Source: an uncultured virus (IMG/VR IMGVR_UViG_3300027816_004729) (Duplodnaviria; Heunggongvirae; Uroviricota; Caudoviricetes). From it: 20,000 nt of DNA. Below are positions 1 to 14,463 of the stretch, piece after piece. The notes under the pieces were generated by a model. That model ran no database searches. It saw only the letters and a program-made list of their open reading frames with translations, and was not told the origin of the DNA. Within the stretch, counting starts at the first letter, position 1, and each line of letters starts with the position of its first letter. Made by a program: the position numbers and the translations under genes. The DNA lies in IMG/VR virus record IMGVR_UViG_3300027816_004729; one strand, given 5' to 3'.

Positions 1-759
1 TGCCGCGGCTTCGCGCGTCATGTAAGTCCGATCTACGAAGTCTTTAAAGGATTCTTTTTCGGTCTTTGTACCTAAAGCTTCTTGAACTCGGTCGGTAAAG
101 GAACTTCCGAAGTTGTAAAATTTAGTGGCGGATCCAGCGGTTTCCTCTAGATCATTAGCCATACCAGAAGCTACAGAACGTAGAGCAAGTTCAGCATCCG
201 CCGCTTCTTTAACTTGTTGCGCGTTTCTATCCCAAGGATGCAAGAACTTACTACCGGCAGTAGGAATATTTGCGCCTGGACCGAATTGTGTAGCATAAAG
301 ACGTTCTCCGCCTAACGCCGTAGAAACTTTATTGATTACTTCGGATGCTGCGTCAACAGGCAAACCCACGATATCTGATAGTGCTCCGGCAGGATTTGCT
401 ACGACTTGATCGACGGCGGCTTCTTTCGTAAATTTACCAAGTCCTATTCCGGTATCTACCGCCATTTCGGCCACCCTAGGAAGAAAATTCGTAGCAACTT
501 CAGTAGCTTGGTCTACTAAAGGTTGTTCTCGCTGTTTTTCAAATACAATTTTTAATTGCTCTTGATCGAGTTCTGGGTCGCCTTCATTGTAACGTTCGTA
601 TAGCGAATCGGGATCTTTGTCTTTTTTGCGGCGTATGATTTCTGAAGTCGGAACTTTAGATTTCAGTTTTTCGCGTATTTGTTCGGATGCACTAACTGAC
701 GAAGGAGGCTGTTGGCCTCCTTCTCTCAGACGTTTTCGGATTTCTTCAGAAGCGGACAT
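1..759 (-). CDS. Putative large internal virion/DNA ejection protein, N-terminal part (runs off the window)
   Basis: Not in the ORF track. Manual translation from ATG at 759 gives MSASEEIRKRLREGGQQPPSSVSASEQIREKLK..., open for 253 codons to position 1. It starts 5 nt after the upstream stop. Helical, A/E/K-rich composition and position after other ejection-like genes support the call. Confidence 0.6.
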   Translation of the reverse strand, partial: MSASEEIRKRLREGGQQPPSSVSASEQIREKLKSKVPTSEIIRRKKDKDPDSLYERYNEGDPELDQEQLKIVFEKQREQPLVDQATEVATNFLPRVAEMAVDTGIGLGKFTKEAAVDQVVANPAGALSDIVGLPVDAASEVINKVSTALGGERLYATQFGPGANIPTAGSKFLHPWDRNAQQVKEAADAELALRSVASGMANDLEETAGSATKFYNFGSSFTDRVQEALGTKTEKESFKDFVDRTYMTREAAA

Positions 760-764
760 TATTC

Positions 765-2108
765 TTATTTGCCTTGTTGCTGAATTATCAGTTCTTCTAA
801 TTTTTTATACAACTCTGAATACTCTTTTGAAGCAGGATCTACTTTCTCGATTTTCCGGTCAAGTTCGTTAATTTGGTCTTGCAAACTGTTTTTTGCTTCT
901 ATGGCTTTGAAGTATCCGGAAACGTCGTAACCGCCGTTTTTGGCCGACTCTAAATATTTGCTTCTTGAAGACTCAAGTTTCTTTTCAAGTTGCGCCATTA
1001 AACCATCAGCAAGCTCCTGCTCTGTTCTTACATTCGGCACCATCGATTTGTAGCGCGCCACGTCTTCATTTGTTAAAACGCCAACTTCGCCAAAGACGGA
1101 TCTAGCTAATCCTGGGACAATGCTTTCAACAAGTTTATTGAGTCTTTGCGCCGCGACGTCGTAAGGATTTTTTTCCTTAAAAATACCAAATAACGGTCCG
1201 CGGGTCACATTTTTCATCTGAGCCTTAATATCTTCCAGCGATGCGCCTAACTCGTCATACTGAGCCATTCTTGTCACAAAAGTGTCAGTTACCGGTCTCC
1301 CTTCGCCTTTTGGCTTTACCGTTACGGTTCCAGTTGGAGTTTTATAAGTTTGCGACGTAATTTCGGATCCCTCGGGTATGTTTACTGCGCCTAAAGGAGA
1401 ATCACTTTTCTCGTAAGGATCACCTACACGTTTGCCAGTTATCCGATCCACGAGTATAACTTTGCTTGTTCCTTCTATAGGCATTTCTACAAATGGCGAT
1501 GGTGGTTTGGATCGCGCCAATGGTGCGGCACTTGCAGGCGCTCCCGATTGTCGATTGTCGTACGAAAATTGTTCGACTCCTTTTCCAGGTTTTTCTGTAA
1601 AACCGAATCCAAATTTGCTGTCAGATGGAATATCTTGCGGAAATAGTGAAGCATCTACATCGCCTAATGGTGTAGTTTCGGTAGGCAAAGCTTCTGGCGG
1701 TAAAGGACTGTAGTAATTTGCCGCAGCTTGTTCGCGCCGTTCTTTGTCTATTTGGAGTTGCGTTAGCGTATCTTTGAGTACGTTGTCTTCGGACTTTAAG
1801 TCGGCGAGATAGACATTTTGTAAAAACTTGTTGAGATCTTCCTCTTCCTCTAGCGCGGCTTTTTCTTTTAATAGTTCTTTTTCGTGTTCTTGCTTGAATC
1901 TTTCAGATATGCCTTCGGTTACGCCTTTAACGCCAATGGTAATGCCTGACAAGAGATTTTCAGATGCTTGTTGTTGGCCTTTTAACCACAAGTCGATTCC
2001 CGGGTCAGCGACAAGACTTTCGCCGCTCGCAAATCCAAAACTTGGACCTTGAACGTTTTCAAGTCTTGCTGCCGCCGGGGCGTTAAACTGAAATCCTCCT
2101 GTTTGCAT
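765..2108 (-). CDS. Putative internal virion/ejection protein (447 aa)
   Basis: Coiled-coil segments, a Pro-rich linker and a helical C-terminal region (GEVGVLTNEDVARYKSMVP) reminiscent of podovirus ejection proteins. Function is inferred from synteny. Confidence 0.55.
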   Translation of the reverse strand: MQTGGFQFNAPAAARLENVQGPSFGFASGESLVADPGIDLWLKGQQQASENLLSGITIGVKGVTEGISERFKQEHEKELLKEKAALEEEEDLNKFLQNVYLADLKSEDNVLKDTLTQLQIDKERREQAAANYYSPLPPEALPTETTPLGDVDASLFPQDIPSDSKFGFGFTEKPGKGVEQFSYDNRQSGAPASAAPLARSKPPSPFVEMPIEGTSKVILVDRITGKRVGDPYEKSDSPLGAVNIPEGSEITSQTYKTPTGTVTVKPKGEGRPVTDTFVTRMAQYDELGASLEDIKAQMKNVTRGPLFGIFKEKNPYDVAAQRLNKLVESIVPGLARSVFGEVGVLTNEDVARYKSMVPNVRTEQELADGLMAQLEKKLESSRSKYLESAKNGGYDVSGYFKAIEAKNSLQDQINELDRKIEKVDPASKEYSELYKKLEELIIQQQGK

Positions 2109-2111
2109 AAC

Positions 2112-2894
2112 TTACATTCCTCCAACTCGGGCTTGCGGATTTGAATAAGTCAAATTGGCAGCCTTATTAATAGACTCGCCGAACTTCGTAAACACCTGAG
2201 AGTTTGCCGGCAATCCTAATATTGTATTTTGGACTGTTGCCGGAGACATAACACTTACCGCGGCGGGTCTAGTGGTTCTTGCTACTCCTGTGTCCGCACC
2301 TTTTTCTTTCTTAAGAAACGTTTCTCCGCCAGTGACTTTTGTAGCTGCAGAACCGGCCTTTGACTCGTATTCTTTGCGTCGTTTTTCACCTTCGGCTTTA
2401 CTAACTTGCTCAAATCGCGTTTGCTCTGCTTTTTTACGCGCGTCTTCGGAAGCGGCTGCCGTCCGCGCGGCTTGATCATCCGCAATTTGTTTATTAGCCT
2501 GAGCCGGGGTTCCTCCAGAAGGCGTAGCCGGTTTGTTTTGCGGCTGTTGTTGCGGTTGTGATTGCGGTCGCGGTTGTGGTTTAGGCTCTTCTTTTTTTGG
2601 CGGAGAAAAAAAGTTTTTAACGGCTTTAAATACTTTACCAAAGAAGAATTCCGGATAACCCGTCGTCGGATTTATTTTATTTGCTTCATTACCGACGGTA
2701 AATTCGTTAATATCCACGCCATAAGAAGCGAAAACCTCCTCGATAGTAGCTTTAATTTCCGGGATTTCGGCTAAACTAGTAGGAATGACAATTTCGCCGG
2801 CCGTTAAGTGCCCGACAATATTGTCCGTGGATCTTCCGGAATTTTCAATTTCTTTGAAAATTTCTTCCATTCCGTTATCGGGAGTATTTTCCAT
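2112..2894 (-). CDS. Putative internal virion protein with GRxxD..H.T.GE.VIP...INPxTGxPEFF domain (260 aa)
   Basis: The N-terminal GRSTDNIVGHLTAGEIVIP...INPTTGYPEFFFGKVFKAVK resembles a motif I recall from uncultured aquatic phage virion proteins. It is followed by a Q/P-rich linker, a coiled coil and a C-terminus ending ARVGGM. Confidence 0.55.
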   Translation of the reverse strand: MENTPDNGMEEIFKEIENSGRSTDNIVGHLTAGEIVIPTSLAEIPEIKATIEEVFASYGVDINEFTVGNEANKINPTTGYPEFFFGKVFKAVKNFFSPPKKEEPKPQPRPQSQPQQQPQNKPATPSGGTPAQANKQIADDQAARTAAASEDARKKAEQTRFEQVSKAEGEKRRKEYESKAGSAATKVTGGETFLKKEKGADTGVARTTRPAAVSVMSPATVQNTILGLPANSQVFTKFGESINKAANLTYSNPQARVGGM

Positions 2895-2895
2895 A

Positions 2896-3357
2896 TTATA
2901 GTCCTCCCATACGAGCGCCAGATGTTTGGTAAATCATGTTGGCTGGTTTGACAATGGCTGTTCCGAACGGCGTTAAACCTGGCGCTGGAAGTGAAGATTT
3001 AGACTGGTCGCCAATTTTTTTGTTCATTGCAGAAGTTGTCGAATCGGCAATTGTGCTATCTTCTGGCGCGCCTCCTGCTTGCTGCGCAAAAGTTTCGGTT
3101 TCTGTTTTATATTTTTGTAAAGCATCCGCGTCTTTAGCCATTTGTTTTTCATCCCATAATGCTTGTTCGCGCTTAGCATTATCGGCGGCAATTCTCGCAT
3201 CCTCGTCGGCTTTTTGCTTTTCGTATTGCTTAATCATATCGTCATATTGCTTTTGTTGCATTTGACGTTGTTTGTCCATTTCTGCAGCCCAAATCTGCAT
3301 TGAGTTGTCTGGAGCAGGTTTACTGCTACTACTACTACGACGACGTCCTCCACCCAT
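2896..3357 (-). CDS. Putative small internal virion protein (153 aa, MGGG start)
   Basis: Strong Shine-Dalgarno upstream, a Q/K-rich coiled coil, and a C-terminal tail similar to that of 2112..2894. Confidence 0.6.
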   Translation of the reverse strand: MGGGRRRSSSSSKPAPDNSMQIWAAEMDKQRQMQQKQYDDMIKQYEKQKADEDARIAADNAKREQALWDEKQMAKDADALQKYKTETETFAQQAGGAPEDSTIADSTTSAMNKKIGDQSKSSLPAPGLTPFGTAIVKPANMIYQTSGARMGGL

Positions 3358-3363
3358 ATTATT

Positions 3364-3371
3364 TCCTCCTT
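3364..3371 (-). promoter_or_regulatory. Shine-Dalgarno site for 2896..3357
   Basis: The minus strand reads TAAGGAGGAAATAAT-ATG. Confidence 0.75.
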
Positions 3372-3390
3372 ATTTTATTTTTGTGTTATA

Positions 3391-3720
3391 TCAAAACCCG
3401 CGTCGTGCGGGATTCGAAAAATTAGTTCCCGAGTACATTCCGCCATTGCGAAGATCTGCGTCCGACGTAACGCCCGACCCAAAGTTATACTTATAATTCG
3501 CAAAGACTGGTTTATTCATTTCAGGAGAATATCCAGTTTTTTGGTTAGCATACGCGTCTCCAAACTTGCTAAACGCGTCCGTGACTCCTGAAGCAAGAGC
3601 TTGCCGTTGTGCTAATTGCTGTGCGGCTTGCTGTGTTGCTTGTTGTGTTGCGGCCGAAGTTGCCGATGACGCGGCGGCTGATGACGCGGCTCCGGCTCCC
3701 GCTGATGCTGCTCCTCCCAT
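3391..3720 (-). CDS. Putative small internal virion protein (109 aa, Ala/Gln-rich, MGG start)
   Basis: The start is reassigned to ATG at 3720 (MGGAASAGAGAASS...). It follows an A-rich spacer, avoids overlap with the upstream gene and matches the MGG starts of its neighbours. Confidence 0.6.
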   Translation of the reverse strand: MGGAASAGAGAASSAAASSATSAATQQATQQAAQQLAQRQALASGVTDAFSKFGDAYANQKTGYSPEMNKPVFANYKYNFGSGVTSDADLRNGGMYSGTNFSNPARRGF

Positions 3721-3773
3721 ATTTTTATTTCTTTCTGGTTTGTTGTTATTTTGTAGAAAGTCCTTTTTTTGCT

Positions 3774-4574
3774 TTAGTTCCTTAACCCGCAATACGGGAT
3801 TTTAGGTTCGCATATTTGAACCGACTCCGATACATTTGGAATGACCATGTCGTTTAGTTTCGGGCACTTAACATACTCAGGGGAATTTTTATTTATGCAA
3901 TTTGTGCAAGCGTGGTAATAGTCGCTATTTAGATGTTTATCGGATTTGGTTTTGATAATTCCATCCACCACTTCATAACGGTTTTCGTCAAAAGGAATAT
4001 TATTGTTTAGCGTGTAATCGGACACGTCTTTTTCAGACCAATCTTTTAAAGGAAACCAAATATCCGCAGAATTCGGGATTTTTTGAATGTCCAATTGAAG
4101 CGGAATTGGTCCGCTTAAAGGATCTACGTCGCAACTTTTGTGCCCGCAAATAAGACTGTCCCAAACAAACTCGGTTTTGTCAATTTTGGGTCTTAAAAGC
4201 CACTCAACTCCGCATACAAATTTTTTATTTGGCTCGTACGGTTCGGTTCCTCTGGCGATGATTAAACTTTCCTGGCCGATGGAATAGGATTCCATAAAAT
4301 CAATCCTATCGTTTCCATAACAAAGCGCGATAGACTTAGGCATCGAGTCATAAACCGAAAGATTTAAATCTTGCGATAGTTTATTGTGGAACGACCACTT
4401 TGCTTTCATCCAAGGAAGAGTCCATTGAATGCAGTCAATGTCTTTCTTCATCACTTCTTTTATCAGAAAAAGAAGGACGGTACTATCTTTTCCACCAGAC
4501 CAAAGTAGCGCGGGTCTTTTCGATTTCTCGAAAACTAAGTGAATTTTTTCTACCGTTTTGTCTATGAGTTCCAT
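3774..4574 (-). CDS. PAPS/APS reductase-family (PP-loop adenine nucleotide alpha hydrolase) protein, 266 aa
   Basis: PP-loop WSGGKDS and a CysH-like FPLKDWSEKDVSDY..NNIPF segment. It also has CTNC and a C-terminal YCGL reminiscent of the CysH ECGL motif. Confidence 0.85.
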   Translation of the reverse strand: MELIDKTVEKIHLVFEKSKRPALLWSGGKDSTVLLFLIKEVMKKDIDCIQWTLPWMKAKWSFHNKLSQDLNLSVYDSMPKSIALCYGNDRIDFMESYSIGQESLIIARGTEPYEPNKKFVCGVEWLLRPKIDKTEFVWDSLICGHKSCDVDPLSGPIPLQLDIQKIPNSADIWFPLKDWSEKDVSDYTLNNNIPFDENRYEVVDGIIKTKSDKHLNSDYYHACTNCINKNSPEYVKCPKLNDMVIPNVSESVQICEPKIPYCGLRN

Positions 4575-5333
4575 TTAGAAAATAATAGCTGCGCCAGCCA
4601 AAGCGCCGGCGGCACCAATTCCTGCTCCCATAAGCGCCGTTTTATTTCCTTCTCCGGCAGCGGCCGCCGCATTTTTTGCTTGAAGATTTTGAGATCTCCT
4701 TTGCGCGTCCATTTGAGCAAACTGTTGAAAACCGCCCATGATGTTTTCGGCGTTGTTTGACATCAATCCCAAATTTCTTGTTTTATAAGCATCTCGCGCA
4801 TTTGCGTTTTCAGCAGCCATCTGCGTCTCATAACTGGCAATTGCGCCAGGATCTAATCCAACCATTGCCATTGGATTTGCCGCCAAATGACGGGCAGCGC
4901 GGTCCTGGGCTAATGCCCGGTTCATATAATAATCTTCGCGGGTCTTATCCGCAAGCGCAGAGCGGGCAAATCCAGACCGGAGATTAGCGCCCGTCGATAT
5001 GACATCGGCCAATCCCTGTTTGAGCCACATATTGGAAAGTTCTTTACTTGGACCTCCTTCAAGATCTTCTGCTGTTTGCCTGGTCAATCCTTTTCGTATT
5101 TCAGCTAAACGCGGATCCATCCGTTCTTCAAGACCGCGCGATTTAAGAGCATTTATTTCGGATTCTCGGGCTGCAGATTTTTGAAGTGCGTCGACTTTTT
5201 GTGCCCGCATTTCTGGCGACATCTTAATAGACGACTCAAGAATACCCGTTCCTAAACCTAACCCAGAAATCATAGTCGGGGCTAGAAGCGGGTTCCCTGG
5301 ATCTGTTTTTACTTTTGGCGTTCCTCCTCCCAT
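4575..5333 (-). CDS. Putative DNA pilot/ejection protein (252 aa)
   Basis: MGGG start, helical A/R/Q-rich body, and a hydrophobic Gly/Ala C-terminus (LMGAGIGAAGALAGAAIIF) typical of membrane-inserting ejection proteins. It directly follows the GNAT-like gene. Confidence 0.6.
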   Translation of the reverse strand: MGGGTPKVKTDPGNPLLAPTMISGLGLGTGILESSIKMSPEMRAQKVDALQKSAARESEINALKSRGLEERMDPRLAEIRKGLTRQTAEDLEGGPSKELSNMWLKQGLADVISTGANLRSGFARSALADKTREDYYMNRALAQDRAARHLAANPMAMVGLDPGAIASYETQMAAENANARDAYKTRNLGLMSNNAENIMGGFQQFAQMDAQRRSQNLQAKNAAAAAGEGNKTALMGAGIGAAGALAGAAIIF

Positions 5334-5335
5334 AA

Positions 5336-5719
5336 TTATTCTCCGGTAGTTACGTATATTTCTCGTTGCATTTTTTCAAATCCTTGTCCCTCGATCATGG
5401 CCTGCGGGAATGTACTTCTTGTAGCGTCTAATGGCACACCAATAAATCCTTCACCGGCACTTACGAATTGACAATGAGCTTTAAATCCTTGGACAACTTC
5501 GATGACGGATCTTGGCGTTGTGACTTCAGGATGGAAAGCTGGAAAAGCTACCGGTAGATAAAATATGTCGGCGTATCCAAACGTTTTGTCGTCACGTTCA
5601 AAAGCAAATAATTTAGCATTGCGTTGCGGCACGATCAAATGATCGAAACTAGCAGCAAATTGCTGCATCTTCACAAAGTCATCACTAAATGGAGATACTT
5701 CTACAAATTTTGTTTTCAT
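5336..5719 (-). CDS. Putative GNAT-fold virion assembly protein (positional analogue of T7 gp13 / P22 gp14)
   Basis: 127 aa, alpha/beta pattern with LFAFERDDKTFGY and a terminal MIEGQGFEK (GNAT-like xxxGF). It lies between the tail and ejection genes. Confidence 0.45.
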   Translation of the reverse strand: MKTKFVEVSPFSDDFVKMQQFAASFDHLIVPQRNAKLFAFERDDKTFGYADIFYLPVAFPAFHPEVTTPRSVIEVVQGFKAHCQFVSAGEGFIGVPLDATRSTFPQAMIEGQGFEKMQREIYVTTGE

Positions 5720-6978
5720 CGGGTTGCCGTAACCACAATCGAAATGTCATTCATAATATTTGTTGCCACAGTTCCTGTCGCGGATACCGCTCTAAACCTA
5801 AGAGACGCCGGCGTTTTCCATTGATTATATGGAAGCGCGGGACTTCCGATCCACAAAGAACCCGTTGACGCGGTTCCTACCGAACCAGTCCAAGAATACG
5901 ATGTGTCCGTAAACGGAGTTGTAAATGTTAATCGGTAGTCAAAAGCGGCTAATCTTGTTAACGAGCAACCGTAACTTGACCTAACTCCATCGGATGTGAC
6001 GGTAAATGTCGTCACGCCGTTTTGAGTCGTGGTCGCGGCACCAGAAAGCATTTTGAATTCAAGTTGCGTCGCTGAAATTGCGCGCGTTATTCGAACTCCA
6101 AGCGTAGAAACGTTTGCTCCGCCAAGCGTTGCATTTGCGGTACCGCTAATGCTGACTATTTTAAAAATCATACCCACAAAACGATCTCCTTCAAACGTCG
6201 TGGCATTTGTCATCGTCCAAGTTCCGAGATCACTCAACGCCGTTACCGCAAGTGTCGATCCAGTTGCTGCGGCAATTGTTCCATTTGCAGGAATTGCTCC
6301 TGCCGTGCAAACTAGTGATCCTCCTGTGGCTTCCAAAAATGCCGGGTCAAAATTTATTGAAGCTGAATTTACGCGTCTTTTAGTATTTTTTGTATAGTCA
6401 GAATTGTCGCTTAAGCTCGGATATTCTATACCAGCTACAGGCATTTGGGAAGTCGTAAAAACTGTTGCTCTAAGACGAGCAGGAGTAATAATTTTTAAAG
6501 CATCAGTACCCGTGTCTACATCAGATTGAGTTGCTAAAAAAGCAACGCCTTTTACAGTTTCAGAAGCCGGAGGATACGAAAACCCAGTTCCGCCTAGCGT
6601 GTACGATCCTGGAGGAATACCCGTAATGGCAAGATCAATGGCAAAAAATGCCGCCGTAGTACTAACTTTAACCACGATCGGACTTGCTTGAGAATAAACA
6701 GCAAAAAGGATACCCGTGCTTGTAATAATACCGATTTCCTGGCAAGTATAAGTGTCGGTTGTTTCGTCCGAGACTGTAAAATGGATTGTATCCGAAGAAG
6801 GGTTCGAAAATCCTGAAGGAGTTAGCGATTTAATCGGAGCTTGAAGTGCCGTTTGCGTAGGTGACGGCGTGTATCCGGCATTTCCAACTTGAATCGTAGA
6901 AAGAACAACTGGCCCAAGTGTTCCGGCTTGTGCAATTGCCGCTTTGCCAACGTTTGTGATTACGAAGTTTAGAGCCAT
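5716..6978 (-). CDS. Tail fibre protein with P2 gpH/DUF3751-like N-terminal domain (420 aa)
   Basis: N-terminal ITNVGKAAIA...YTPSPTQTAL...EIGIITSTGILFAVYS, followed by the fibre motif PPASETVKGVAFLATQSDVDTGTDALKIITPARL and a beta-rich C-terminal domain. Confidence 0.75.
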   Translation of the reverse strand: MALNFVITNVGKAAIAQAGTLGPVVLSTIQVGNAGYTPSPTQTALQAPIKSLTPSGFSNPSSDTIHFTVSDETTDTYTCQEIGIITSTGILFAVYSQASPIVVKVSTTAAFFAIDLAITGIPPGSYTLGGTGFSYPPASETVKGVAFLATQSDVDTGTDALKIITPARLRATVFTTSQMPVAGIEYPSLSDNSDYTKNTKRRVNSASINFDPAFLEATGGSLVCTAGAIPANGTIAAATGSTLAVTALSDLGTWTMTNATTFEGDRFVGMIFKIVSISGTANATLGGANVSTLGVRITRAISATQLEFKMLSGAATTTQNGVTTFTVTSDGVRSSYGCSLTRLAAFDYRLTFTTPFTDTSYSWTGSVGTASTGSLWIGSPALPYNQWKTPASLRFRAVSATGTVATNIMNDISIVVTATR

Positions 6979-7021
6979 ACTAGTTTAATAATTCACTGTG
7001 CATTTTAAAAAGAAAATAGAA

Positions 7022-7543
7022 TTATAAGATTGTTTTTGAGAAAGAAACTCCAGACGTTACTGCCGAAGGAGTCGTGCCATCTCCCCAGTCTATCAAAGTT
7101 GGTTGCCCATTAGTCGTGATAATCATATTGGAGATTAAAGTCCCCGTCGGTGCATCAAGTGTCCAGAATATTGGAGACGACGTAAAGTCAAACCGCTCCC
7201 AAGTTATTTGTTGCAGTAATGCAAAACTATTAATTTCTCCTTCGAAATCCACGGTAACGCTTTCAAGTGAACCTGAAGGAAGAGGCGGTATAGTCGGGGT
7301 CTCAGAAGAAGTCGAAATAGAATTTTGCGGAAGTATTACTTTTTCTTCGGCGAGTTGGATTATAAACCTAAGTAGTTTATTCGAATTTAAAGATGTTAAC
7401 GAGCAAGGAAGACAGTCGTCGTCATTAGTACCTTTAATAGCTATTGAAGAGTATAGCGCAATAGGCGGTTTATCTGAAAATGGACTTATAAACGCGCTAG
7501 GAGAAGTTTTTTTGAAATTTTTTATGTCAATTGCAGAAGGCAT
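7022..7543 (-). CDS. Hypothetical virion-associated protein (173 aa)
   Basis: Coupled to the upstream gene (TAGTATG). It has a CLPC motif and a C-terminal IDWGDGT (PKD/Ig-like signature). Confidence 0.5.
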   Translation of the reverse strand: MPSAIDIKNFKKTSPSAFISPFSDKPPIALYSSIAIKGTNDDDCLPCSLTSLNSNKLLRFIIQLAEEKVILPQNSISTSSETPTIPPLPSGSLESVTVDFEGEINSFALLQQITWERFDFTSSPIFWTLDAPTGTLISNMIITTNGQPTLIDWGDGTTPSAVTSGVSFSKTIL

Positions 7544-7544
7544 A

Positions 7545-10500
7545 CTATTGGCAAGTTACTCCAGAATTTACGTAATCTTGAGCGATGGTCAGCGCGTTAA
7601 TATCCGCATCAGTTTGACTTATTTGGCTCCTATAAACACCGCCAATTGAGTAAGCCAAAAACGAGTTAATAAAAGTGCCGTTAAAATCTAGTCGGGCAAA
7701 TCGACTAGCAGTTTCTCCGTCGTATTCGGTAAATTTTCCGACGACAATCAACTTGTTGTCATTTATGATAATTTGATTTGCGACATCATTAAACCCAGAA
7801 CCCACAATAAATGAAGAATCGATCGTTCCGGTTGAAAGAATTTTAACGATTCGGTTTCTTGGACTTCCGTTGTATGACGTGAATGAACCCGCGGCATATA
7901 CGTTACCGGTTGCGTCAATTACAATAGATTTTGCAGCAAAACCATTGCCAAATCCAGATCCAACATTGAATGAAGAGTCGACAGTGCCATTGGCAAGTAG
8001 CCTGACTATATTTTTGTTTGAATTTATTCCTATGGATGAAAATATTATTTTCCCATCGGATTGAAGTGCCAAAGCGTAAAATAAATTATCTGAAGCATTG
8101 TGCTCGTAGTGTGTAAATGAAGTGTCGTCTGTTCCGTCTACATTCAAACGATTAACAGCAATTTTCGAATTTGTCCCAAAACCTGCAATTATCAGTTTCC
8201 CATCAGGTTGTTCAATAAAATCTCTAATAGAATCAAATGGCACGCTATATGTTTTGGCAACTGTCCCATTGGCATTCAATTTTATAATTGGCGATATTCC
8301 TGAATTTCCATTGTAGCTCGTAAATGTTCCAGAAACAAAAATTGATTGGCCGTCGTTGGCGATCTTTACTTTTCTGGCGGTTCCGGAAGGAAATCCCGCT
8401 CCAAAAGTTGGGGTTTGAGCTAAAGTTCCGCTTGAAGATAATTTTGTTATTCCGATTCTATTTTCACCGGAGTATTTTTGAAAATCGCCTACGCATATTG
8501 CGGACCCGTCGGAATAATTGGCAATTGAATACACATTGTAACTTACCGAAGGATCTAATGGGTTGAATGGCGTATTTACGAATCCGTTTGAGGCAATATT
8601 TACTGGCGTGTAGTTTGTCAGTCTTCCGCCATTAATTAACTCTTTTGCCGTTATTTTGCCTTGAAGTCTTGTGTTGTCAAACCAGAAATTTCCAACTAAA
8701 GCAAACTTATCCGGTAACGCGGTGATCGCGTTTACTTCGTCATTCAATACGCTAGAACATGTTCCAGGAGCAAATTTTACCGAGTCGTAGTAGCACGGAT
8801 ACCCTTGGACAACAACCGCGAGTTGATCTTCGGCGGCTTTTTGGGCCACAGCTAAAGCTTGAATATCGGCATCGGCTTGAGAAACTTTCGATCGGTATGT
8901 TGCCACGGCCGTAACCGCCACAGGACCGGTTACCGAAGGCGAAGGACAAAGTCTTTCCGCTTTATACGATTGAGTCGATATGAAAATTGAAGCCACCGAA
9001 TTTTCGTAGCGATCGCTTATTTTTATGAAATCTTTGGCTCTGCCGTACGAATGATTTTTTCCTTGTTCGTCGACGATGCAGACTTTAGTTTCATCTTCTT
9101 CGCATCTTCCATCTGACCGTTCTGGATGCGGTTCCATGAACATTCTTACCGATTCGACGGCTAATTGGCCGCACCACCGTATTAAAAGACTGAAAGCTTT
9201 GTCTATACTCTCTACGTTTTCGCTTTCGCATGTCGGACAACCAGTATCTAGATTTCCGTATTCGGTGATGACCCGACGACTTTGTTTTCTTAGCACTCCT
9301 AAGTCTTCAGACGCGTCATCAGGAATATTTGCTCCGGCGTCGTCAATCGCGATTGGCGCGATAATTTCTTTGCATAAAACATTCTTATAGCTACCGCGCA
9401 TCCCTTTGTAGTCGACTCTCAAAGAGACGTCGCCTGAAATTTCGATAAGATTTACGTCCGCGTACAAGAATACTTTCAAGTCGTGACCATCACCCATCAA
9501 TCTCGTTTCAAATTCGCAATAAATCGGGCGGCGAAAAATTTCTATTTCATTATCGGCGCCGAGTTCAAAAAATGAGTCTTCGCGTTCTGGCATAAACGCT
9601 TCCCAAATATGGTTGTGGCTTCCGTCTGATAGCGCATTATAGTCTACCGAAGCAGCAAATGCTCGGCGGCGACTACCGATGTTGGCAGCGACCCATTGTA
9701 CAGGTCGTATTCCAGTCCATACGCTAGACCAAGCCGGAATTTTTTCCGCAGAAGCTTCGCTCATGGTAGCGTAATCAAGAACGAAAGTTTCTGAATTTAA
9801 ATTTTCGCTAATTGGCGCAGAAACGAGCAGATAGTTTTCAAAACTTAAAGTACAAATTCCGGATTGGTCGGAAGCTAGCGATTGCTTACTAAAAGCCATT
9901 TCCGCATCTCTAAAATTAATTTGGCTAGTTAAGTTTGAAGATGCCGCGGCATCCGAAGAAACAAGACCGCCAGCGCTATACCACCACATTAATCCAGATT
10001 GGAATGTGATGCTCCTTCCGGCAATGCATCCAGTACTAGGAAAAAGTATTGACTGAAAGTTTGGAGTGGTAGCCCATTTTGTCCGATCTCTTATTCCAGA
10101 TTGAATAACTTCGCTTCTATTTTCTGTAAAAACGGTTAAAATTTCGGCTCGATTGTCGCCTAAAAACCCTACAAGACCTGTTATATCTTTCGAAAAAAGA
10201 AAGTCGCCGCGACTCGACCCGTTTATTCGTTCTGAGAATCTTAGAGGATCAAAGAGATCGGAAGCCACGACAACTTTTCCTCGTGCAACCCAAAGTCTTC
10301 CTCCTGAAAAAGCCATCCAGGTACCTCTAGGAGTTTGAAGACCAGGTTCAGCTTCTTTTAAATGTCCGGAATCAAATCCGTCCCAAAACCCGGCTTCGCT
10401 GACACCGTCTTGGATTATGAGTATATTGTAACTAGGAACGAGTTGTATAGCTTGATTTGAAAGAGTCGTTACAGTTTTTTCCGCAACGCAAAAATGAACC

Positions 10501-10865
10501 ATGCTAGCCGCGGAATCGAATTTTAAATTCGGAATTTTAAAAAAATCCCAATCTTTTGGCTGGGCTAAAGGAAAAGGAGCTGCGTAAATTGAACCGTCTA
10601 CGGCAAAAACAAGATAATCGGTTTCGGCTTCAGAGTTTTTTGTGGATACAAAATGTGCCATTCCCTGCAAATTTCCTGCAGGAAGAGTCAGTTGATGCGC
10701 AAATCCGGGTCTTGTCTGGGCAATTCCGCCACGATTGACTATATTTACAGCCCTTCGGTATTGGTCTGGCCTTAAAAGCCAAGGATGACGAATAGTATTC
10801 ATGCCAGCCGTCCATCCGGCATCCACGCTCACTAGTCTTCCAGCCGCGATATTTGGTGCCTGCAT
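7545..10865 (-). CDS. Tail nozzle / tail tubular protein B-like protein (P22 gp10-like) with C-terminal delta-60 repeats (1106 aa)
   Basis: The N-terminal ~600 aa look like a nozzle propeller (AVNIVNRGGIAQTRPGF, MAFSGGRLWVA, GCIAGRSI, CEFETR). The C-terminal part has delta-60/DUF5122 repeats (ALQSDGKII, RLLANGTVDSSFNVGSGF). It follows the adaptor-like gene. Confidence 0.65.
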   Translation of the reverse strand: MQAPNIAAGRLVSVDAGWTAGMNTIRHPWLLRPDQYRRAVNIVNRGGIAQTRPGFAHQLTLPAGNLQGMAHFVSTKNSEAETDYLVFAVDGSIYAAPFPLAQPKDWDFFKIPNLKFDSAASMVHFCVAEKTVTTLSNQAIQLVPSYNILIIQDGVSEAGFWDGFDSGHLKEAEPGLQTPRGTWMAFSGGRLWVARGKVVVASDLFDPLRFSERINGSSRGDFLFSKDITGLVGFLGDNRAEILTVFTENRSEVIQSGIRDRTKWATTPNFQSILFPSTGCIAGRSITFQSGLMWWYSAGGLVSSDAAASSNLTSQINFRDAEMAFSKQSLASDQSGICTLSFENYLLVSAPISENLNSETFVLDYATMSEASAEKIPAWSSVWTGIRPVQWVAANIGSRRRAFAASVDYNALSDGSHNHIWEAFMPEREDSFFELGADNEIEIFRRPIYCEFETRLMGDGHDLKVFLYADVNLIEISGDVSLRVDYKGMRGSYKNVLCKEIIAPIAIDDAGANIPDDASEDLGVLRKQSRRVITEYGNLDTGCPTCESENVESIDKAFSLLIRWCGQLAVESVRMFMEPHPERSDGRCEEDETKVCIVDEQGKNHSYGRAKDFIKISDRYENSVASIFISTQSYKAERLCPSPSVTGPVAVTAVATYRSKVSQADADIQALAVAQKAAEDQLAVVVQGYPCYYDSVKFAPGTCSSVLNDEVNAITALPDKFALVGNFWFDNTRLQGKITAKELINGGRLTNYTPVNIASNGFVNTPFNPLDPSVSYNVYSIANYSDGSAICVGDFQKYSGENRIGITKLSSSGTLAQTPTFGAGFPSGTARKVKIANDGQSIFVSGTFTSYNGNSGISPIIKLNANGTVAKTYSVPFDSIRDFIEQPDGKLIIAGFGTNSKIAVNRLNVDGTDDTSFTHYEHNASDNLFYALALQSDGKIIFSSIGINSNKNIVRLLANGTVDSSFNVGSGFGNGFAAKSIVIDATGNVYAAGSFTSYNGSPRNRIVKILSTGTIDSSFIVGSGFNDVANQIIINDNKLIVVGKFTEYDGETASRFARLDFNGTFINSFLAYSIGGVYRSQISQTDADINALTIAQDYVNSGVTCQ
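7660..8745 (-). repeat. Delta-60 (DUF5122-like) beta-propeller repeats
   Basis: About 6-7 units of the form xxQxDGKIxxxGxFxxYNG...RLxxxGTxDxSFxxGxGF. Confidence 0.8.
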
Positions 10866-10868
10866 AAA

Positions 10869-13853
10869 TTAATCCAACCAATCGTCAGGGTTTGACATTA
10901 TGTCGGCGTTGACTTGTATAGGGGTAATTCTTGCACCGTCAATTGCGCGATTCCGCTTATTTAAGTATTCGACGGCGATGGCTCTATAGCGTTCGGATTC
11001 ATCGGCAAATTTTCGCATCAGAAGTTCTTGAGATTGAACCATCATGAGTATTGCCATCTTGGAATCGAGATTGATGAAATCATATTCCGTCATTAAGTCA
11101 TAACTACGACGGCGGTATTTCATTCTGATCCATTTTGCGTTATCTCGTATTTTTATCCGCCTGTAAGCCGGATTGGTTTCAAAAAAAGGAGAATTTCCTA
11201 AAAACGCGATGTTCTGATCTCTGCCGGTATCCCAAGCGTAAAGTCTTTTAAAACCATCTGTAATCGGATGCTGTATGTTATGAATTTCGGCGATGTTAAT
11301 TTCTGGAACGGAAAAAACCAATTTTTGTACGCCGGATCCTGTAGAAAAAAACGTCAGTCTTCCAGTAATAGAGGTTGTATTTTCGGCTTCGGCTTTACTT
11401 CCGTATAGTTCAACGGTATCTTGCGTTAGTGATCTTACAAAATATGTCGTATTAGGTAAAAGCGGATCCGGAAAATCCAACTCGGCCTCAACGCTGACTT
11501 CAGTTCCTGTGGAAAATGCTTGATTTGAGACGTCTAAGCTTGTCGCGGCATCGACAGTTAATGCTCTTGCAATTTTTAGTTTATGCGTTCCTGACCCAAT
11601 TCCGGTAAAAGAAACGAGGACATTAGATGTCGTATAAACTTCAATTTGGTCGTTAACTACAGAAACTAAATACGGAGAACCAGAAATAAGAGGTTGGGGA
11701 AGCGTCCCGGTTGTCGTAAATGTTGCCGGAACTAAATTTCCGAGAAACGCCGAAAACTCAATATCCAATTGATTGTCTCTAGGAACTATTTGCGCGGATC
11801 TTTCAGTAAAACCGTAAAGTTTTCCTATTCCCAAAGAAATTGCCGAAATTATCCCAGTCGTAGTCGCCGTGTTTATCGCCTGTTGATACTGGCCGTACAG
11901 TTGAATTCGTGTATCGCCGAGTTTTCGTATGTAAAATGGATTTTGCGTGTCTATTTGAGGAGACGTAACCGGAACGGCTCCTGTCGTAAATACTCTAACC
12001 GCAGATCCAGTTACAAATGAAGTCGCACTTAGTTGCCAGTCTTGCGAAAATCCGACTGAAAAAGTCCTATTAATAACTAAGAAAAGCGAACCACTTCCTG
12101 TAGACGTGATATTTATAGGTTCAGGGATTGCCGAGCTTACCGTAAAACTCGTAAGTCCCATCGGATTTAAATCGGTGCCTTCTGCTCGATAAACAGCTTC
12201 CGCAGTTAACGGTGCTGGAAGCGTTCCAGTTGTCTGGAATTGAATAAAACTTCCAGAAGCCGGAACAAACTGTACTGCCGGAGCGGTTGTATATCCTGTA
12301 CCTCCAGTGATTACAGAAACTGCGACCACTTTTCCGCCGGATACCGTAGCGACGGCTGTTGCACCAGTTCCCCCGCCTCCGGTTAGTTTGATAACAGGAG
12401 AAACATTATAACCGGTTCCGGCGGCCGTTATATTTAACGAGGTGACGGTACCATTTGTTATGACTGAAGTCCCCGTTGCTCCACTTCCAGAAGGGTTATT
12501 TAAATTGTGCGGAACACTAGTCGTTATATTTGCCGAAGCACCCGTAGTTACCGTAGAAATTGGGATTATTTTTTGTACGACACTTATGCCAGAACCTAAT
12601 GACGTAAAAACTATTGAATTTAAATTTCCAGTTGCATCGGCCGATGTATTATGCAACGTTATTCGGGTGTCGTCTATTTTCCGTACAAAATAAGTCGTAT
12701 TTTCGACAAGAGGTTCCGGCATATCTCCGCCAGAATTTTTGACGGTGACACTGTCTCCGGTTATAAAGTTATGAAAGACAGAAAAGTTTAGGGTTGTTAC
12801 CGGATCGAGAGACAAGAGTTGCCGAAGTTGGAGTCCAGAACCCGGATCTGTAACATTTACAGGATCGGTGCCCGACTTTGCGTCTTGCAAAGTTTTATGT
12901 ATATTAAAATTCTCGGTTCCAGCAGTTTTAACGTAGAATATGTTGTCGGCTTTTATTTCAGGCGGATACGTCGTTGCGCCAAACGCAACTATATCTAAAT
13001 CATTTAGCCCGTTAGCTCCAAAAGTTTTTACCATCGTCCGAGCCGTCGTACTTCTTTCGTCGATAAGCGAAATTGAAGAGTTAGACGACAATTTTGTTAC
13101 TTGAATCGGACTTTGATTTAATTGCGCGTCAAGTCTTGTTGCGTGAATGGTAACCGTGTTTAAATCGACCGCCCGTACGTAATAATAAAAACCATTATTG
13201 AGAGGTTGCGGAAATAATCCGGTATTGGCCAAGGCCTGCATTCTAACGCCCGTTATCAGCTTATGGTCTGTAGATGAACTAAAAAACTTCATTACCGAAG
13301 TAGTGAATATTCTTTTTTGAGTTCTAGTTAAAGGTTTTGCAGTTGGTATTAAAGCAGAAAATTCAAATGGCAAGAATATCCCATCTAACCACAGACCGTC
13401 TTCGGTTTGTTGTCTAAGTGTATTCCCAAATTCGTCAATTCCCATTATTCGGGTCTGCAATCCTTCATCAGACCTAAGATCGCATCTGGCTATAACAGGA
13501 CCCGGAACTTTTATATCCATGGTTGTCGGGACAATTCCGACGTCGTCCCAAACCCAAGGAACAACTCTTTCGTCGGTTAATCCGTCACCATTTAAATGAA
13601 ATCTAGAAAATTCATCTCTACCAAATACCGGGATACCATCGATTGTGACAGCCAACGGAGTTTCGACCTCTCGCGGCAAAGTTACGGTATTTCCGTCATT
13701 GAAAGTCCTTATATCAAGGACGCCAATGTTGGCATTCCAGTCGCCTTCGTCTTGGAGGGCTCTTACTGCGTCGGTAAGGCGTTTAAGCGCTTTTTCGCGA
13801 TCGCATCTTCCAAGAATTTCTACGACATCGTCGAGGATCTCAGAGACGAACAT
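10869..13853 (-). CDS. Head-tail adaptor / tail tubular protein A-like protein with large repeat insertion (994 aa)
   Basis: The helical N-terminus (MFVSEILDDV...VTLPREVETPLAV) and helical C-terminus (YRRIKI...ERYRAIAVEYLN) resemble podoviral adaptors. About 650 aa of beta-repeats lie between them, and the gene precedes the nozzle-like gene. Confidence 0.55.
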   Translation of the reverse strand: MFVSEILDDVVEILGRCDREKALKRLTDAVRALQDEGDWNANIGVLDIRTFNDGNTVTLPREVETPLAVTIDGIPVFGRDEFSRFHLNGDGLTDERVVPWVWDDVGIVPTTMDIKVPGPVIARCDLRSDEGLQTRIMGIDEFGNTLRQQTEDGLWLDGIFLPFEFSALIPTAKPLTRTQKRIFTTSVMKFFSSSTDHKLITGVRMQALANTGLFPQPLNNGFYYYVRAVDLNTVTIHATRLDAQLNQSPIQVTKLSSNSSISLIDERSTTARTMVKTFGANGLNDLDIVAFGATTYPPEIKADNIFYVKTAGTENFNIHKTLQDAKSGTDPVNVTDPGSGLQLRQLLSLDPVTTLNFSVFHNFITGDSVTVKNSGGDMPEPLVENTTYFVRKIDDTRITLHNTSADATGNLNSIVFTSLGSGISVVQKIIPISTVTTGASANITTSVPHNLNNPSGSGATGTSVITNGTVTSLNITAAGTGYNVSPVIKLTGGGGTGATAVATVSGGKVVAVSVITGGTGYTTAPAVQFVPASGSFIQFQTTGTLPAPLTAEAVYRAEGTDLNPMGLTSFTVSSAIPEPINITSTGSGSLFLVINRTFSVGFSQDWQLSATSFVTGSAVRVFTTGAVPVTSPQIDTQNPFYIRKLGDTRIQLYGQYQQAINTATTTGIISAISLGIGKLYGFTERSAQIVPRDNQLDIEFSAFLGNLVPATFTTTGTLPQPLISGSPYLVSVVNDQIEVYTTSNVLVSFTGIGSGTHKLKIARALTVDAATSLDVSNQAFSTGTEVSVEAELDFPDPLLPNTTYFVRSLTQDTVELYGSKAEAENTTSITGRLTFFSTGSGVQKLVFSVPEINIAEIHNIQHPITDGFKRLYAWDTGRDQNIAFLGNSPFFETNPAYRRIKIRDNAKWIRMKYRRRSYDLMTEYDFINLDSKMAILMMVQSQELLMRKFADESERYRAIAVEYLNKRNRAIDGARITPIQVNADIMSNPDDWLD
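11330..13270 (-). repeat. Seven degenerate ~85-aa beta-domain repeats
   Basis: Recurring HxxxTG..V...GxLPxPL...YxVR..D..IxL...I.xTxxGSG, for example FPQPLNNGFYYYVR, MPEPLVENTTYFVR, LPQPLISGSPYLV and FPDPLLPNTTYFVR. Confidence 0.85.
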
Positions 13854-13862
13854 TTTGCGTAG

Positions 13863-14096
13863 TTAAATTCCAAGACGCGAATCAGACATCCCAGAAAGCT
13901 CTTGGCCGAATCCTTCAAGGCCGGGAGCTTCTGCGCCAAGGCCAAGGCCTTTCATCTTTTCAGCGGCTTTTGCGCCTTTCATGTCGGCTTTGATTTTTGC
14001 TTCTGCGCCGTCAAGCGCTGAACCTAATTGAGCAATGAATTCTTTTGCCATTTGAAACGTGGTCATTGGCATTGTGATTGTAATTTCTTCTTCCAT
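13863..14096 (-). CDS. Hypothetical small protein (77 aa)
   Basis: The start is reassigned to ATG at 14096 (MEEEITITMP...), which forms a TAATATG junction with the upstream stop at 14098. Confidence 0.65.
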   Translation of the reverse strand: MEEEITITMPMTTFQMAKEFIAQLGSALDGAEAKIKADMKGAKAAEKMKGLGLGAEAPGLEGFGQELSGMSDSRLGI

Positions 14097-14097
14097 A

Positions 14098-14463
14098 TTA
14101 GTCTTCCTTTTCGTTTTCTGCTTTATCTTCTGTTTCGTCTTCTGATTCGGATAAACCTTTTTCAATTTCATCTTCGTCCGAAGAGCTTTTGCTTCCCGAA
14201 TTAAAGTCAATTCCCATGACGTCGATGTCCACGGATTTCATTTCTTTAACGCTACCGTCGTCATTTTTGCGTTCAGTTTCGTGTTTAGAAACTACGCGAA
14301 ATTTAATAGTAGCAGTTCCTTCGACTCCAACATCCGGAGTTTCTAGATCTTCAATCCCGCTTAAATATAAAGTCGGGTAATGCACGACTTCGTCCATATT
14401 TTCGTCAGAAACAAGTTCAACGACGTCCATTTCTGAGTTACGTTTTTTTCCAAGATCGACCAT
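14098..14463 (-). CDS. Acidic protein, possibly capsid staple/decoration-like (121 aa)
   Basis: The pattern MVDL...YPTLYL...PDVG...ATIKFRVVS..E...SVDIDVMGI resembles small podoviral capsid staple proteins as I recall them. The tail is acidic. Confidence 0.4.
   Translation of the reverse strand: MVDLGKKRNSEMDVVELVSDENMDEVVHYPTLYLSGIEDLETPDVGVEGTATIKFRVVSKHETERKNDDGSVKEMKSVDIDVMGIDFNSGSKSSSDEDEIEKGLSESEDETEDKAENEKED

Follow-up and report, generated by a model that had tools for sequence, protein, structure and literature searches.

A stretch of 20,000 nucleotides (nt) from an uncultured tailed virus (IMG/VR virus record IMGVR_UViG_3300027816_004729), called the window below and meaning that whole stretch, carries three adjacent genes on its minus strand (5719 to 3774) that are read here, with about even confidence, as a maturation cassette for one internal virion protein of the ejection type. 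The middle gene, of 252 amino acids (aa), would encode the substrate, which has a flexible N-terminus beginning MGG and a Gly/Ala-rich hydrophobic C-terminal tail. The coupled gene downstream encodes an enzyme with an ATP/pyrophosphate loop (PP-loop) that would use ATP and act on, or for, the C-terminal end of the substrate, and that would take the place held in relatives by a self-cleaving S74 intramolecular-chaperone domain. The first gene encodes a 127-aa protein with a predicted GNAT fold, which probably attaches an acyl group near the N-terminus of the substrate, at Gly2 or at a Lys close by. Both enzymes would work in the producing cell, and neither would be a sulfur-assimilation gene. 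The cassette has the following parts:

5336..5719, minus strand: 127-aa protein with GNAT-like fold, candidate acyltransferase, position -2 relative to the PP-loop gene

4575..5333, minus strand: 252-aa protein, candidate internal virion/ejection protein and proposed substrate, position -1

4572..4577, minus strand: TAAATG junction, where the stop of the -1 gene (TAA, 4577-4575) abuts the start of the PP-loop gene (ATG, 4574-4572)

3774..4574, minus strand: 266-aa PP-loop enzyme of the PAPS-reductase superfamily (PF01507)

The fixed and coupled position of the enzyme gene is seen in the window and across its family. An earlier note on this DNA, made from the letters alone, had the enzyme starting directly after the stop of a pilot-like gene, and the minus-strand TAAATG at 4572-4577 bears this out; the junction carries no Shine-Dalgarno sequence, and to judge by its letters the PP-loop gene is translationally coupled to the 252-aa gene. 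The label pilot-like for 4575-5333 is unconfirmed, with no family match in Pfam, PHROGs, or NCBIfam. Relatives of the enzyme form two clades, named here SGGKDS and SFGKDS after the sequence of the loop. In IMG/VR, an SGGKDS-clade relative is encoded by 463 of 493 pattern matches and an SFGKDS-clade relative by 89 of 166, and 80 loci of each clade were kept. An enzyme open reading frame (ORF) could be called in 71 of the 80 SGGKDS loci and an upstream ORF in 69; in 59 of these 69 the upstream stop and the enzyme start share one base. When the neighbors were clustered for the 135 loci with a called enzyme ORF, a single family occupied position -1 in 105 (97, and 8 of the window's own subclade), proteins of about 130 aa stood at -2 in 38 + 11, a virion protein of about 640 aa was found at -3 to -5 in 101, and a fiber protein in 65. 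Downstream of the enzyme, relatives have proteins of rising size, the last of 740-2250 aa, without any Pfam or PHROG family. The -1 proteins combine a flexible N-terminus with a Gly/Ala-rich, uncharged, hydrophobic C-terminal segment that ends in F, L, Y, or M in every case listed; the 252-aa protein itself begins MGGGTPK and ends in the tail ..GAGIGAAGALAGAAIIF. The check proposed in the earlier note was whether the neighborhood is conserved in homologs; at enzyme identities of 30 to 100%, the gene keeps its fixed and coupled position in the internal-protein block of highly diverged phages. When the PP-loop enzyme (A1) was co-folded with ATP and the 252-aa protein (A4), the runs scored 0.43, 0.01, and 0.00, which speaks neither for nor against the proposal.

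A similar arrangement has already been annotated in cultured Bcep22-like phages (Lessievirus, Gervaisevirus, Cimandefvirus), where it has been read as cysH morons. In Bcep22 the fibers gp64-66 are followed by gp67, gp68, gp69 (acyl-CoA N-acyltransferase, 143 aa), gp70 (virion-associated, 331 aa), gp73 (PAPS-reductase-like, 242 aa), gp74, and gp75 (4602 aa, DarB-like). Ralstonia phage Cimandef has the same gene order, and its gp17 starts MGGKGGG. Order and sizes are those of the window: fibers, a small acyltransferase-fold gene, a tail-ended protein, and the PP-loop gene. In both systems a Gly/Ala hydrophobic tail ending in F abuts the PP-loop gene, more virion proteins follow, and a protein of more than 3800 aa closes the operon. 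The two differ in that the -2, -1, 447-aa, and giant proteins of the window lack detectable sequence homology to their Bcep22-like counterparts, the PP-loop enzyme is of another subfamily, and the window has extra small MGG proteins. By hhalign, the gp73 type is related to the enzyme family of the window (96.5% probability, E 7.3e-10, 161 columns), and its sequence contains CC...CxxC, the Fe-S pattern of APS (adenosine 5'-phosphosulfate) reductases.

Homologs of gp70 are present in 71 phage records and homologs of gp73 in 45 (41 of these from phages of Burkholderia or Ralstonia). Eleven cultured phages were read in detail. In the two with a PP-loop gene, gp70 stops at ..AGAGIMAF or ..GGAALMAF, whereas in the nine without one gp70 continues, in eight directly after ..MAF/W into an S74 autoprocessing domain and in one into another extension. 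The S74 extension contains SSKELKEDK .. PVEEWKYKDG .. HIGPYAEDF, and depositors annotate it as an intramolecular-chaperone autoprocessing domain. S74 domains of this kind are known from endosialidases and tail fibers. In relatives without a PP-loop gene the domain stands exactly where that gene would be, right after the ..GLMAF segment of the gp70-like protein, although it is fused, self-cleaving, ATP-free, and unrelated to the enzyme in sequence and fold. The same exclusivity is seen among uncultured viruses. Of 191 pattern matches in the viral set, 190 are S74-type relatives, and 80 loci were kept. Hidden Markov models (HMMs) of the PP-loop enzyme, built from A1, A2, and the gp73 type, found nothing within 3.5 kb in any of these 80 loci, while A1 and A2 recovered 80/80 and 79/80 loci of the two PP-loop sets. 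Conversely, an S74 HMM recovered 80/80 of the S74 set and 0/160 PP-loop loci, the window being among those without S74. The PP-loop gene therefore co-varies with the C-terminal end of its neighbor rather than with the MG start discussed below. Two more lineages, a spring-water phage genome (39.7 kb) and Aeromonas phage phiA008, repeat this pairing, with F as the last residue of a hydrophobic tail and a gene of the PP-loop type immediately behind. In phiA008 (L274, 5001-5687) this gene is a gp73-type homolog with 35% identity to Bcep22 gp73, following a 167-aa protein that ends ..IGTIAVMF; no GKDS motif was found in the homolog, which may be a degenerate, non-catalytic version.

The 266-aa product of 3774..4574 is the SGGKDS enzyme that the earlier note described, with WSGGKDS at residues 25-31. 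It passes the Pfam model PAPS_reduct (PF01507; 29.6 bits against a cut-off of 22.5, E 8.3e-7), where PAPS is 3'-phosphoadenosine 5'-phosphosulfate. PHROG matches are limited to the P-loop region (phrog_2302 and phrog_424, residues 5-46; the QueC-like phrog_1550, E 0.004, residues 11-37 only). In the family alignment, which comprises the query and 163 members of 240-340 aa (164 sequences), S26, G28, K29, D30, and S31 are kept in at least 162 of 164 members, and C121, C223, C226, and C237 are invariant (164/164), with the spacing C223-x2-C226. The family also keeps the motifs GHK..D.D and RY. The Cys of the C-terminal YCGLR is kept in just 44/164 members, namely in 42 of 69 in the SGGKDS clade and 1 of 81 in the SFGKDS sister clade, which retains all the catalytic residues.

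An AlphaFold (AF2) model of the enzyme has a predicted local distance difference test score (pLDDT) of 95.6 and a predicted template modeling score (pTM) of 0.91. Its Rossmann-like PP-loop fold matches CysD, FAD synthase, and CysH at Z 10.7-14.3 in VIA: CysD at Z 14.3 (157 residues, root-mean-square deviation 2.6), the PAPS domain of human FAD synthase at Z 13.2, and plant and bacterial APS and PAPS reductases at Z of about 10.8-13.2. TilS, NcsA, GMP synthase, LarE, and TtuA follow at Z 8.3-9.8 (NcsA 9.6, LarE 9.1, TtuA 8.3), and Cap9 (9nto_B, Z 7.1) and QueC (3bl5_A, Z 7.0) match at the level of the superfamily. Foldseek gave a best E of 6.6e-6, with TM 0.43-0.54 and 11-17% identity. Against sequences in the PDB, the family profile matches CysD (1zun) at E 6.5e-13 and CysH at E 1.9e-6, the latter over positions 20-74 (the P-loop) and a short stretch, 163-194. 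Curated models score far below their cut-offs: the NCBIfam CysD model reaches 31.6 bits against 195, with no CysN/GTPase partner in the record by Pfam; DndC (TIGR03183) reaches 18.5 bits against 290.4, and the PADLOC DndC match (E 1.3e-4) covers residues 4-42 alone; TilS is far under its cut-off, and no NCBIfam CysH model matches at E up to 1. The enzyme is therefore assigned, from its sequence and fold, to an unnamed branch of PAPS-reductase-like PP-loop enzymes with a complete ATP/pyrophosphate loop. The four invariant Cys are probably a metal site, putatively [4Fe-4S] as in APS reductase, or zinc.

The family is restricted to viruses, and uncultured ones. A search of 1.84 billion representatives gave 306 clusters at E<=1e-3, 220 at E<=1e-10, and 57 at E<=1e-30, and a word-index search gave 46 proteins, mostly unnamed. 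Among 185,579 prokaryote species (one genome each), relatives account for just 15 of 466 pattern matches, of which five are near full-length. All five lie on contigs of metagenome-assembled genomes (one from Proteobacteria, three from Verrucomicrobiota, one from Oceanicoccus) and could be phage DNA. A tblastn search of 50,697 cultured-phage records with the enzyme of the window and with a 45%-identical relative (L043) gave zero matches. With relatives so frequent in viral stretches and nearly absent from prokaryote species and cultured phages, the distribution differs from what a recent capture of a host cysH would give. The fixed coupled position, the virus-restricted family, and the small GNAT-fold gene ahead of the same neighbor uphold the opinion of the earlier note that this is not a metabolic auxiliary gene.

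The earlier note counted three proteins starting MGG, which are confirmed (5333 MGGGT, 3720 MGGAA, 3357 MGGGR), and took this start as one cue to a modification of internal virion proteins. In the SGGKDS clade, all 65 full-length upstream proteins start MG (53 MGG, 7 MGK, 4 MGS, 1 MGD); of the other 4 among the 69 upstream ORFs, 3 are cut by the end of the locus (L032, L047, L070) and 1 is a miscalled minus-strand ORF (L086). M1 and G2 are invariant in the alignment of -1 proteins (A4). Across 48 distinct start contexts the Gly2 codon is GGC in 30, GGA in 17, and GGT in 1, and such mixed codons place the constraint at the level of the protein. Only 95 of 997 distinct ORFs of at least 80 aa in the related loci start MG, mostly members of the one -1 family, and no ORF listed for the rest of the window's genome does, so the MG starts are not due to chance. 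A tie of this start to the enzyme did not stand. The -1 proteins of the SFGKDS clade have greater lengths, about 500-1000 aa, and MG starts 9 of 69 (MA 21, MF 8, others varied; these are longest-ORF calls, some probably miscalled), whereas MG stands just before an AP.PDP motif in 47 of 80 S74-type proteins and starts gp70 in 6 of the 9 cultured phages without a PP-loop gene. The MGG start is consequently reassigned from the PP-loop enzyme to the -1 protein family and its acyltransferase. As a separate observation, the gp70-like proteins of Parlo (L184), PEp14 (L185), SopranoGao (L186), and Bcep22 (L182) carry a hydrophobic N-terminal leader of about 55 residues, ending ..FKK(G/D), ahead of the sequence that elsewhere follows the initiator Met (MGKGSSKAP.PDP), which suggests that the leader of these four proteins is removed to expose the same N-terminus.

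These observations also bear on the form of the earlier note's idea with the best precedent, which is considered unlikely: the N-terminal glycine of MGG proteins would be joined to a carboxylate by the PP-loop enzyme, as it is by the QueC-family enzymes Cap9 of type IV CBASS and QatC of QatABCD. In those systems, too, a PP-loop ATP-pyrophosphatase stands beside a protein with a flexible N-terminus of M-G-G type, with the pattern M(G/S)G(G/S)GG, and another precedent is offered by lasso-peptide cyclases. In Cap9 and QatC a carboxylate is first adenylated and then attacked by an amine: the Cap9 preprint describes adenylation of 7-carboxy-7-deazaguanine by Cap9 and attack on the product by the Gly2 amine of CdnD (bioRxiv 10.1101/2025.04.06.647259), and the QatB report describes an essential N-terminal glycine motif (PMC13279940). 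The Gly2 of all 65 SGGKDS-clade proteins with its mixed codons, the three MGG proteins of the window, and the presence of Cap9 and QueC among the fold matches all agree with such a role. However, the SFGKDS clade keeps the catalytic residues of the enzyme while most of its -1 proteins do not start MG, MG starts are frequent where the PP-loop gene is absent, and the motif does not track the enzyme here. The enzyme also belongs to the PAPS-reductase branch and not to the QueC branch (Z 14 to CysD against Z 7), the record showed no pathway for deazaguanine or another donor, and the setting is a phage structural operon instead of a defense system.

A second signal in the earlier note was a set of three C-terminal tails, which are present as described: the proteins ending at 2112, 2896, and 3391 end in ARVGGM, ARMGGL, and ARRGF. 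The features concerned, downstream of the cassette, are these:

3391..3720, minus strand: 109-aa small protein, MGGAAS.. to ..NPARRGF (the ATG at 3720 was chosen; the longest ORF begins at TTG 3792)

2896..3357, minus strand: 153-aa small protein, MGGGRRR.. to ..ARMGGL, with a strong Shine-Dalgarno sequence upstream

2902..2907, minus strand: GGAGGA, both Gly-Gly of ..ARMGGL and Shine-Dalgarno sequence, 7 nt upstream of ATG 2894

2112..2894, minus strand: 260-aa protein, C-terminus ..ARVGGM

2118..2123, minus strand: GGAGGA, both Gly-Gly of ..ARVGGM and Shine-Dalgarno sequence, 9 nt upstream of ATG 2108

The interpretation of these tails as the activated GG end of ubiquitin- or ThiS-type proteins has to be given up. 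GG is never terminal (the tails are GGM, GGL, and GF), and in 11 of 12 proteins ending in GG(x) from 8 loci (the window and L008, L010, L079, L084, L086, L115, L165) GGAGG lies 1-12 nt before the next start codon. Read in frame just before that start, GGAGG gives Gly-Gly, so the GG tails are embedded ribosome-binding sites. Proteins ending in ..RRGF or ..RIGF are followed instead by an intergenic TAAGGAGG. The 153-aa and 260-aa proteins share a longer C-terminal motif, FG..I.K.AN..Y....AR.GG, which suggests that they are paralogs. Small paralogue-like MGG proteins were seen in the window's own subclade alone (L010, L079, L084, L086). None of the five small proteins that surround the enzyme (127, 252, 109, 153, and 260 aa) has a Pfam or PHROG family apart from a weak phrog_3394 row for the 153-aa protein, and apart from the PP-loop enzyme the small proteins have only weak NCBIfam rows (E >= 0.005, far under cut-off) and none in PADLOC.

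The enzyme might modify a nucleic acid or a small molecule and simply ride in the late operon, by phosphorothioation as with DndC/SspD or by thiolation as with TtuA/NcsA; this is given a low probability. A PP-loop with an invariant Cys cluster is the hallmark of sulfur insertion of the TtuA, NcsA, LarE, and DndC type; NcsA, LarE, and TtuA are among the fold matches; the SGGKDS loop and Cys cluster are shared with DndC, SspD, and BrxP, with weak model matches to DndC and BrxP; and a thymidylate-synthase-like gene, a deoxycytidylate (dCMP) deaminase, and a NUDIX protein are encoded elsewhere in the genome. The scores to these systems are, however, far under the cut-offs (as for DndC above), no dndA/B/D/E, ssp, ParB, or sulfur-carrier partner was found nearby with Pfam and PHROGs, and an activity of this kind would leave unexplained both the coupling to one virion protein and the co-variation with the end of that protein.

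A different view of the S74 exchange, held to be quite improbable, is that the PP-loop protein is a non-catalytic chaperone or cap acting in trans, which binds the hydrophobic tail as it leaves the ribosome and replaces S74 without chemistry. S74 domains are folding and trimerization chaperones, and the PP-loop gene lies exactly in the place of the domain and is translationally coupled. A mere binder would nevertheless not be expected to keep the PP-loop Ser, Lys, and Asp and the four Cys across so diverged a family (at least 162 of 164 members).

The reading given in published annotations of Bcep22-like phages, an ordinary auxiliary metabolic gene or moron encoding a cysH-like (P)APS reductase that boosts sulfur assimilation of the host, is considered very unlikely here. 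The Pfam match, the YCGLR sequence resembling the C-terminal catalytic motif of CysH (ECGLH), and the four Cys resembling the Fe-S ligands of APS reductase all favor it. RefSeq names the gp73 type cysH, and the report on phage JC1 calls the acetyltransferase gp63 and the PAPS reductase gp65 "moron genes" and proposes sulfate reduction (PMC9144972). Although the sulfonucleotide enzymes CysD, CysH, APS reductase, and the PAPS domain of FAD synthase are the best sequence and fold matches, identity to them is about 15%, and the C-terminal Cys is so poorly kept (1/81 in the SFGKDS clade) that the family appears, from its alignment, to be without the conserved catalytic tail that defines sulfonucleotide reductases. 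The full SGGKDS loop is of the CysD/ATP-pyrophosphatase type and aligns to the "SIGKDS" of CysD, whereas the loop of CysH is degenerate. The absence of an NCBIfam CysH match, the low scores for CysD, DndC, and TilS, the lack of close cellular homologs, the coupled and fixed position in a structural operon, and the exclusivity with the S74 domain of the neighbor likewise argue against a reductase. The earlier note had also seen no sulfur-assimilation, dnd, or DNA-metabolism genes nearby, and this agrees with the Pfam results, in which no cys, dnd, or sulfur gene is found in the window or the remaining 48-kb record; the DNA-metabolism genes of the record sit beyond the 11.6-kb giant gene.

That the enzyme is packaged, injected, and active early in the next host, for example in counter-defense or takeover, is highly improbable: its gene does lie among those for internal or ejected proteins and the giant downstream protein has GNAT enzyme domains, but in the JC1 report virion mass spectrometry found gp64 (the gp70 homolog, 45% coverage), gp68, and the giant gp69, while gp63 (acetyltransferase) and gp65 (PAPS reductase) were missing from the proteins listed although both neighbors were found (PMC9144972), an argument limited in that JC1 is only a distant analog and low-copy proteins can be missed. 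The absence of the two JC1 enzymes from the virion list fits enzymes that act during assembly and are left behind.

Under the maturation-cassette reading, the -2 gene would supply the second modification. The earlier note called the 127-aa product of 5336-5719 GNAT-like; this holds at the level of the fold, in a model of moderate confidence, and does not hold at the level of sequence, where no families were found in Pfam, PHROGs, NCBIfam, or PADLOC (Pfam at E up to 1), nor any PDB sequence at E up to 10 with a 27-sequence profile. The AF2 model (pLDDT 69.4, pTM 0.69) has the GNAT strand-helix order beta1-alpha-beta2-4-alpha3-beta5-alpha4-beta6. Nearly all of its top 50 VIA matches are GNAT folds, at Z 6.4-8.7 (middling by the tool's own scale) over about 100-110 aligned residues, and include FemA (8.7, the best match), the aminoglycoside acetyltransferase AAC(6') (8.2), and enzymes that acetylate protein N-termini, namely NAA80 (7.3), RimI (6.9), NAA50, and RimL. 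Foldseek also returns GNATs, with a best E of 8e-3, and Atlas language-model features place the protein at 0.97 to viral clusters in which 47-67% of members have GNAT Pfam families. The pyrophosphate-binding loop for acetyl-CoA in GNATs is Q/R-x-x-G-x-G/A, and tRNA-dependent GNAT-fold members of the FemA type lack that motif; at the beta4-alpha3 junction the 127-aa protein has, by eye, FHPEVTTPR, with no G-x-G. The three -2 families (window, L043, and Bcep22 gp69 types) show no mutual relation by hhalign (window against gp69, probability <=1%). A gp69-type HMM detects 63 of 80 S74-type loci, 0 of 80 SGGKDS loci, and 2 of 80 SFGKDS loci. For the 132-aa -2 protein of the L043 group, HlyC was considered as a candidate, on the basis of PF02794 in 23% of the members of the best-ranked of 10 Atlas clusters with that family; Pfam scans of 31 members and a PDB profile search were empty, and it was set aside as a mere lead.

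A further small protein, of about 131 aa with a SET domain (PF00856, up to 39.6 bits), adjoins the PP-loop gene at 16 loci, most of which belong to the SFGKDS clade, and five of six tested are above the Pfam cut-off (L089, L104, L110, L114, L120, L134; for example L114:6794-7186). A lysine-methyltransferase fold is unusual within a phage internal-protein block. That small folds predicted to modify proteins seem to recur around the -1 virion protein supports the cassette.

Several points weigh against the cassette as proposed. The argument draws on gene neighborhood throughout, and the adenylyl groups that the nearest solved relatives of the enzyme (CysD, FAD synthase, CysH) transfer or bind are carried by small molecules and not by proteins; CysD adenylylates sulfate and FAD synthase adenylylates flavin mononucleotide. 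Three distant gp70-like loci (L287, L288, L289) have neither a PP-loop gene nor S74, and their proteins end ..LKKWG, ..GKKVA, and ..GWWA, so a short end can exist without the enzyme. No homology of the 252-aa protein to gp70 is detectable (BLAST E 0.41; core HMM 0/160; hhalign 67% over 18 columns), nor is any similarity found between the giant protein and gp75 or between the 447-aa protein and gp74; the Bcep22 parallel is therefore one of architecture and a related enzyme. Among cultured phages the PP-loop type seems to form a single lineage of Burkholderia and Ralstonia phages, and the exclusivity of PP-loop gene and S74 domain may reflect few evolutionary events. The acyltransferase does not discriminate by the MG start, being present with 39 of 47 MG-start loci in the S74 set (8 without) and with 24 of 33 others (9 without; MS-start, leader, no motif, or other), and a link of the two had to be dropped. 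Finally, no sequence match connects the 127-aa protein to a GNAT family, its model is moderately confident, and an acetyl-CoA loop motif is not evident in it.

The cassette reading can be given a definite chemistry, although in that specific form it is an unlikely proposition. The PP-loop enzyme would contact the 252-aa protein and adenylate its C-terminal carboxylate, a step proposed because it is general PP-loop chemistry, and the end would then be amidated, thiocarboxylated, or ligated to a lipid, to a virion protein, or to the protein's own N-terminal glycine (cyclization). In relatives, S74 self-cleavage would arrive at an equivalent activated carbonyl by way of its ester intermediate. 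The same ejection protein would also receive marks at its N-terminus or on lysines from the GNAT-fold and SET partners.

The window as a whole is one tightly packed late operon, in which all sizeable ORFs are on the minus strand. Positions 1-19993 correspond to G000:C1:28030-48022 of the virus record, which has 48,022 bases and is an estimated 76% complete. In transcription order, the features outside the region already listed are as follows:

15646-19458, minus strand: 1270-aa fiber protein with PATR repeats (E 5.6e-38) of autotransporter type, first in transcription order

after the 1270-aa PATR fiber, minus strand: several small proteins (ORF calls)

between the small proteins and the 420-aa tail fiber, minus strand: 994-aa tail protein

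7545-10865, minus strand: 1106-aa tail protein with DUF5122 beta-propeller repeats (E 1.1e-34) and DUF5977

5716..6978, minus strand: 420-aa tail fiber (PF12571, E 3.9e-5; phrog_15547, E 3.2e-37; phrog_8443, E 4.7e-31), directly upstream of the cassette

765..2108, minus strand: 447-aa protein of the internal-protein block (ORF call)

1..759, minus strand: N-terminal 253 aa of a giant 3874-aa protein that closes the operon (whole gene G000:C1:17164-28788, L006:65-11689)

The tail proteins of 1106 and 1270 aa carry repeats of cellular type. In the giant protein Pfam finds only GNAT domains, at aa 3349-3415 (E 2.7e-10) and aa 3523-3574, and one PHROG without an assigned function matches at aa 1519-1578. 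The other half of the record, on the plus strand, encodes a helicase, the dCMP deaminase, a PD-(D/E)XK nuclease, a family A polymerase, the NUDIX protein, the thymidylate-synthase-like gene, a primase-type protein, and a pyrimidine-dimer glycosylase. The early region (L005; G000:C1:3313-4161, 5268-5732, 10623-12599) has a weak match to a pyridoxal-phosphate enzyme family (PF00291, 23.8 bits, under cut-off) in addition to the dCMP deaminase, NUDIX, and thymidylate-synthase-like proteins and a 230-aa protein with, by eye, a P-loop-like GPDGCGKT N-terminus, and this cluster may be a modified-pyrimidine pathway. In the three distant gp70-like loci described above, the next gene starts with a Gly-rich motif of the MGLGLGALGG type, as it also does after S74-type proteins.

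In a literature search that left subscription journals largely outside its range, no link of phage PAPS-reductase genes to virion-protein maturation was found, and the enzyme subfamily and its tie to the C-terminus of its neighbor are undescribed in the literature searched. "PAPS reductase/cysH" is one of the commonest labels given to auxiliary metabolic genes of viruses, and arguments that sulfur cycling is steered by phages draw on it. If the cassette reading is true, counts of viral sulfur genes are inflated, since a virus-only branch of 306 clusters and more than 500 viral stretches would be the partner of a virion protein, and PP-loop chemistry would have been taken up by phages for building or arming the machinery that ejects their DNA. 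The apparent swap of an ATP-using enzyme for a self-cleaving chaperone domain is a natural experiment on the purpose of the enzyme. To our knowledge, protein modification by PP-loop enzymes has so far been shown at the N-terminus alone (Cap9 and QatC, 2025-2026); ATP-dependent modification of a protein C-terminus by an enzyme of the PAPS-reductase type, in virions, would be new.

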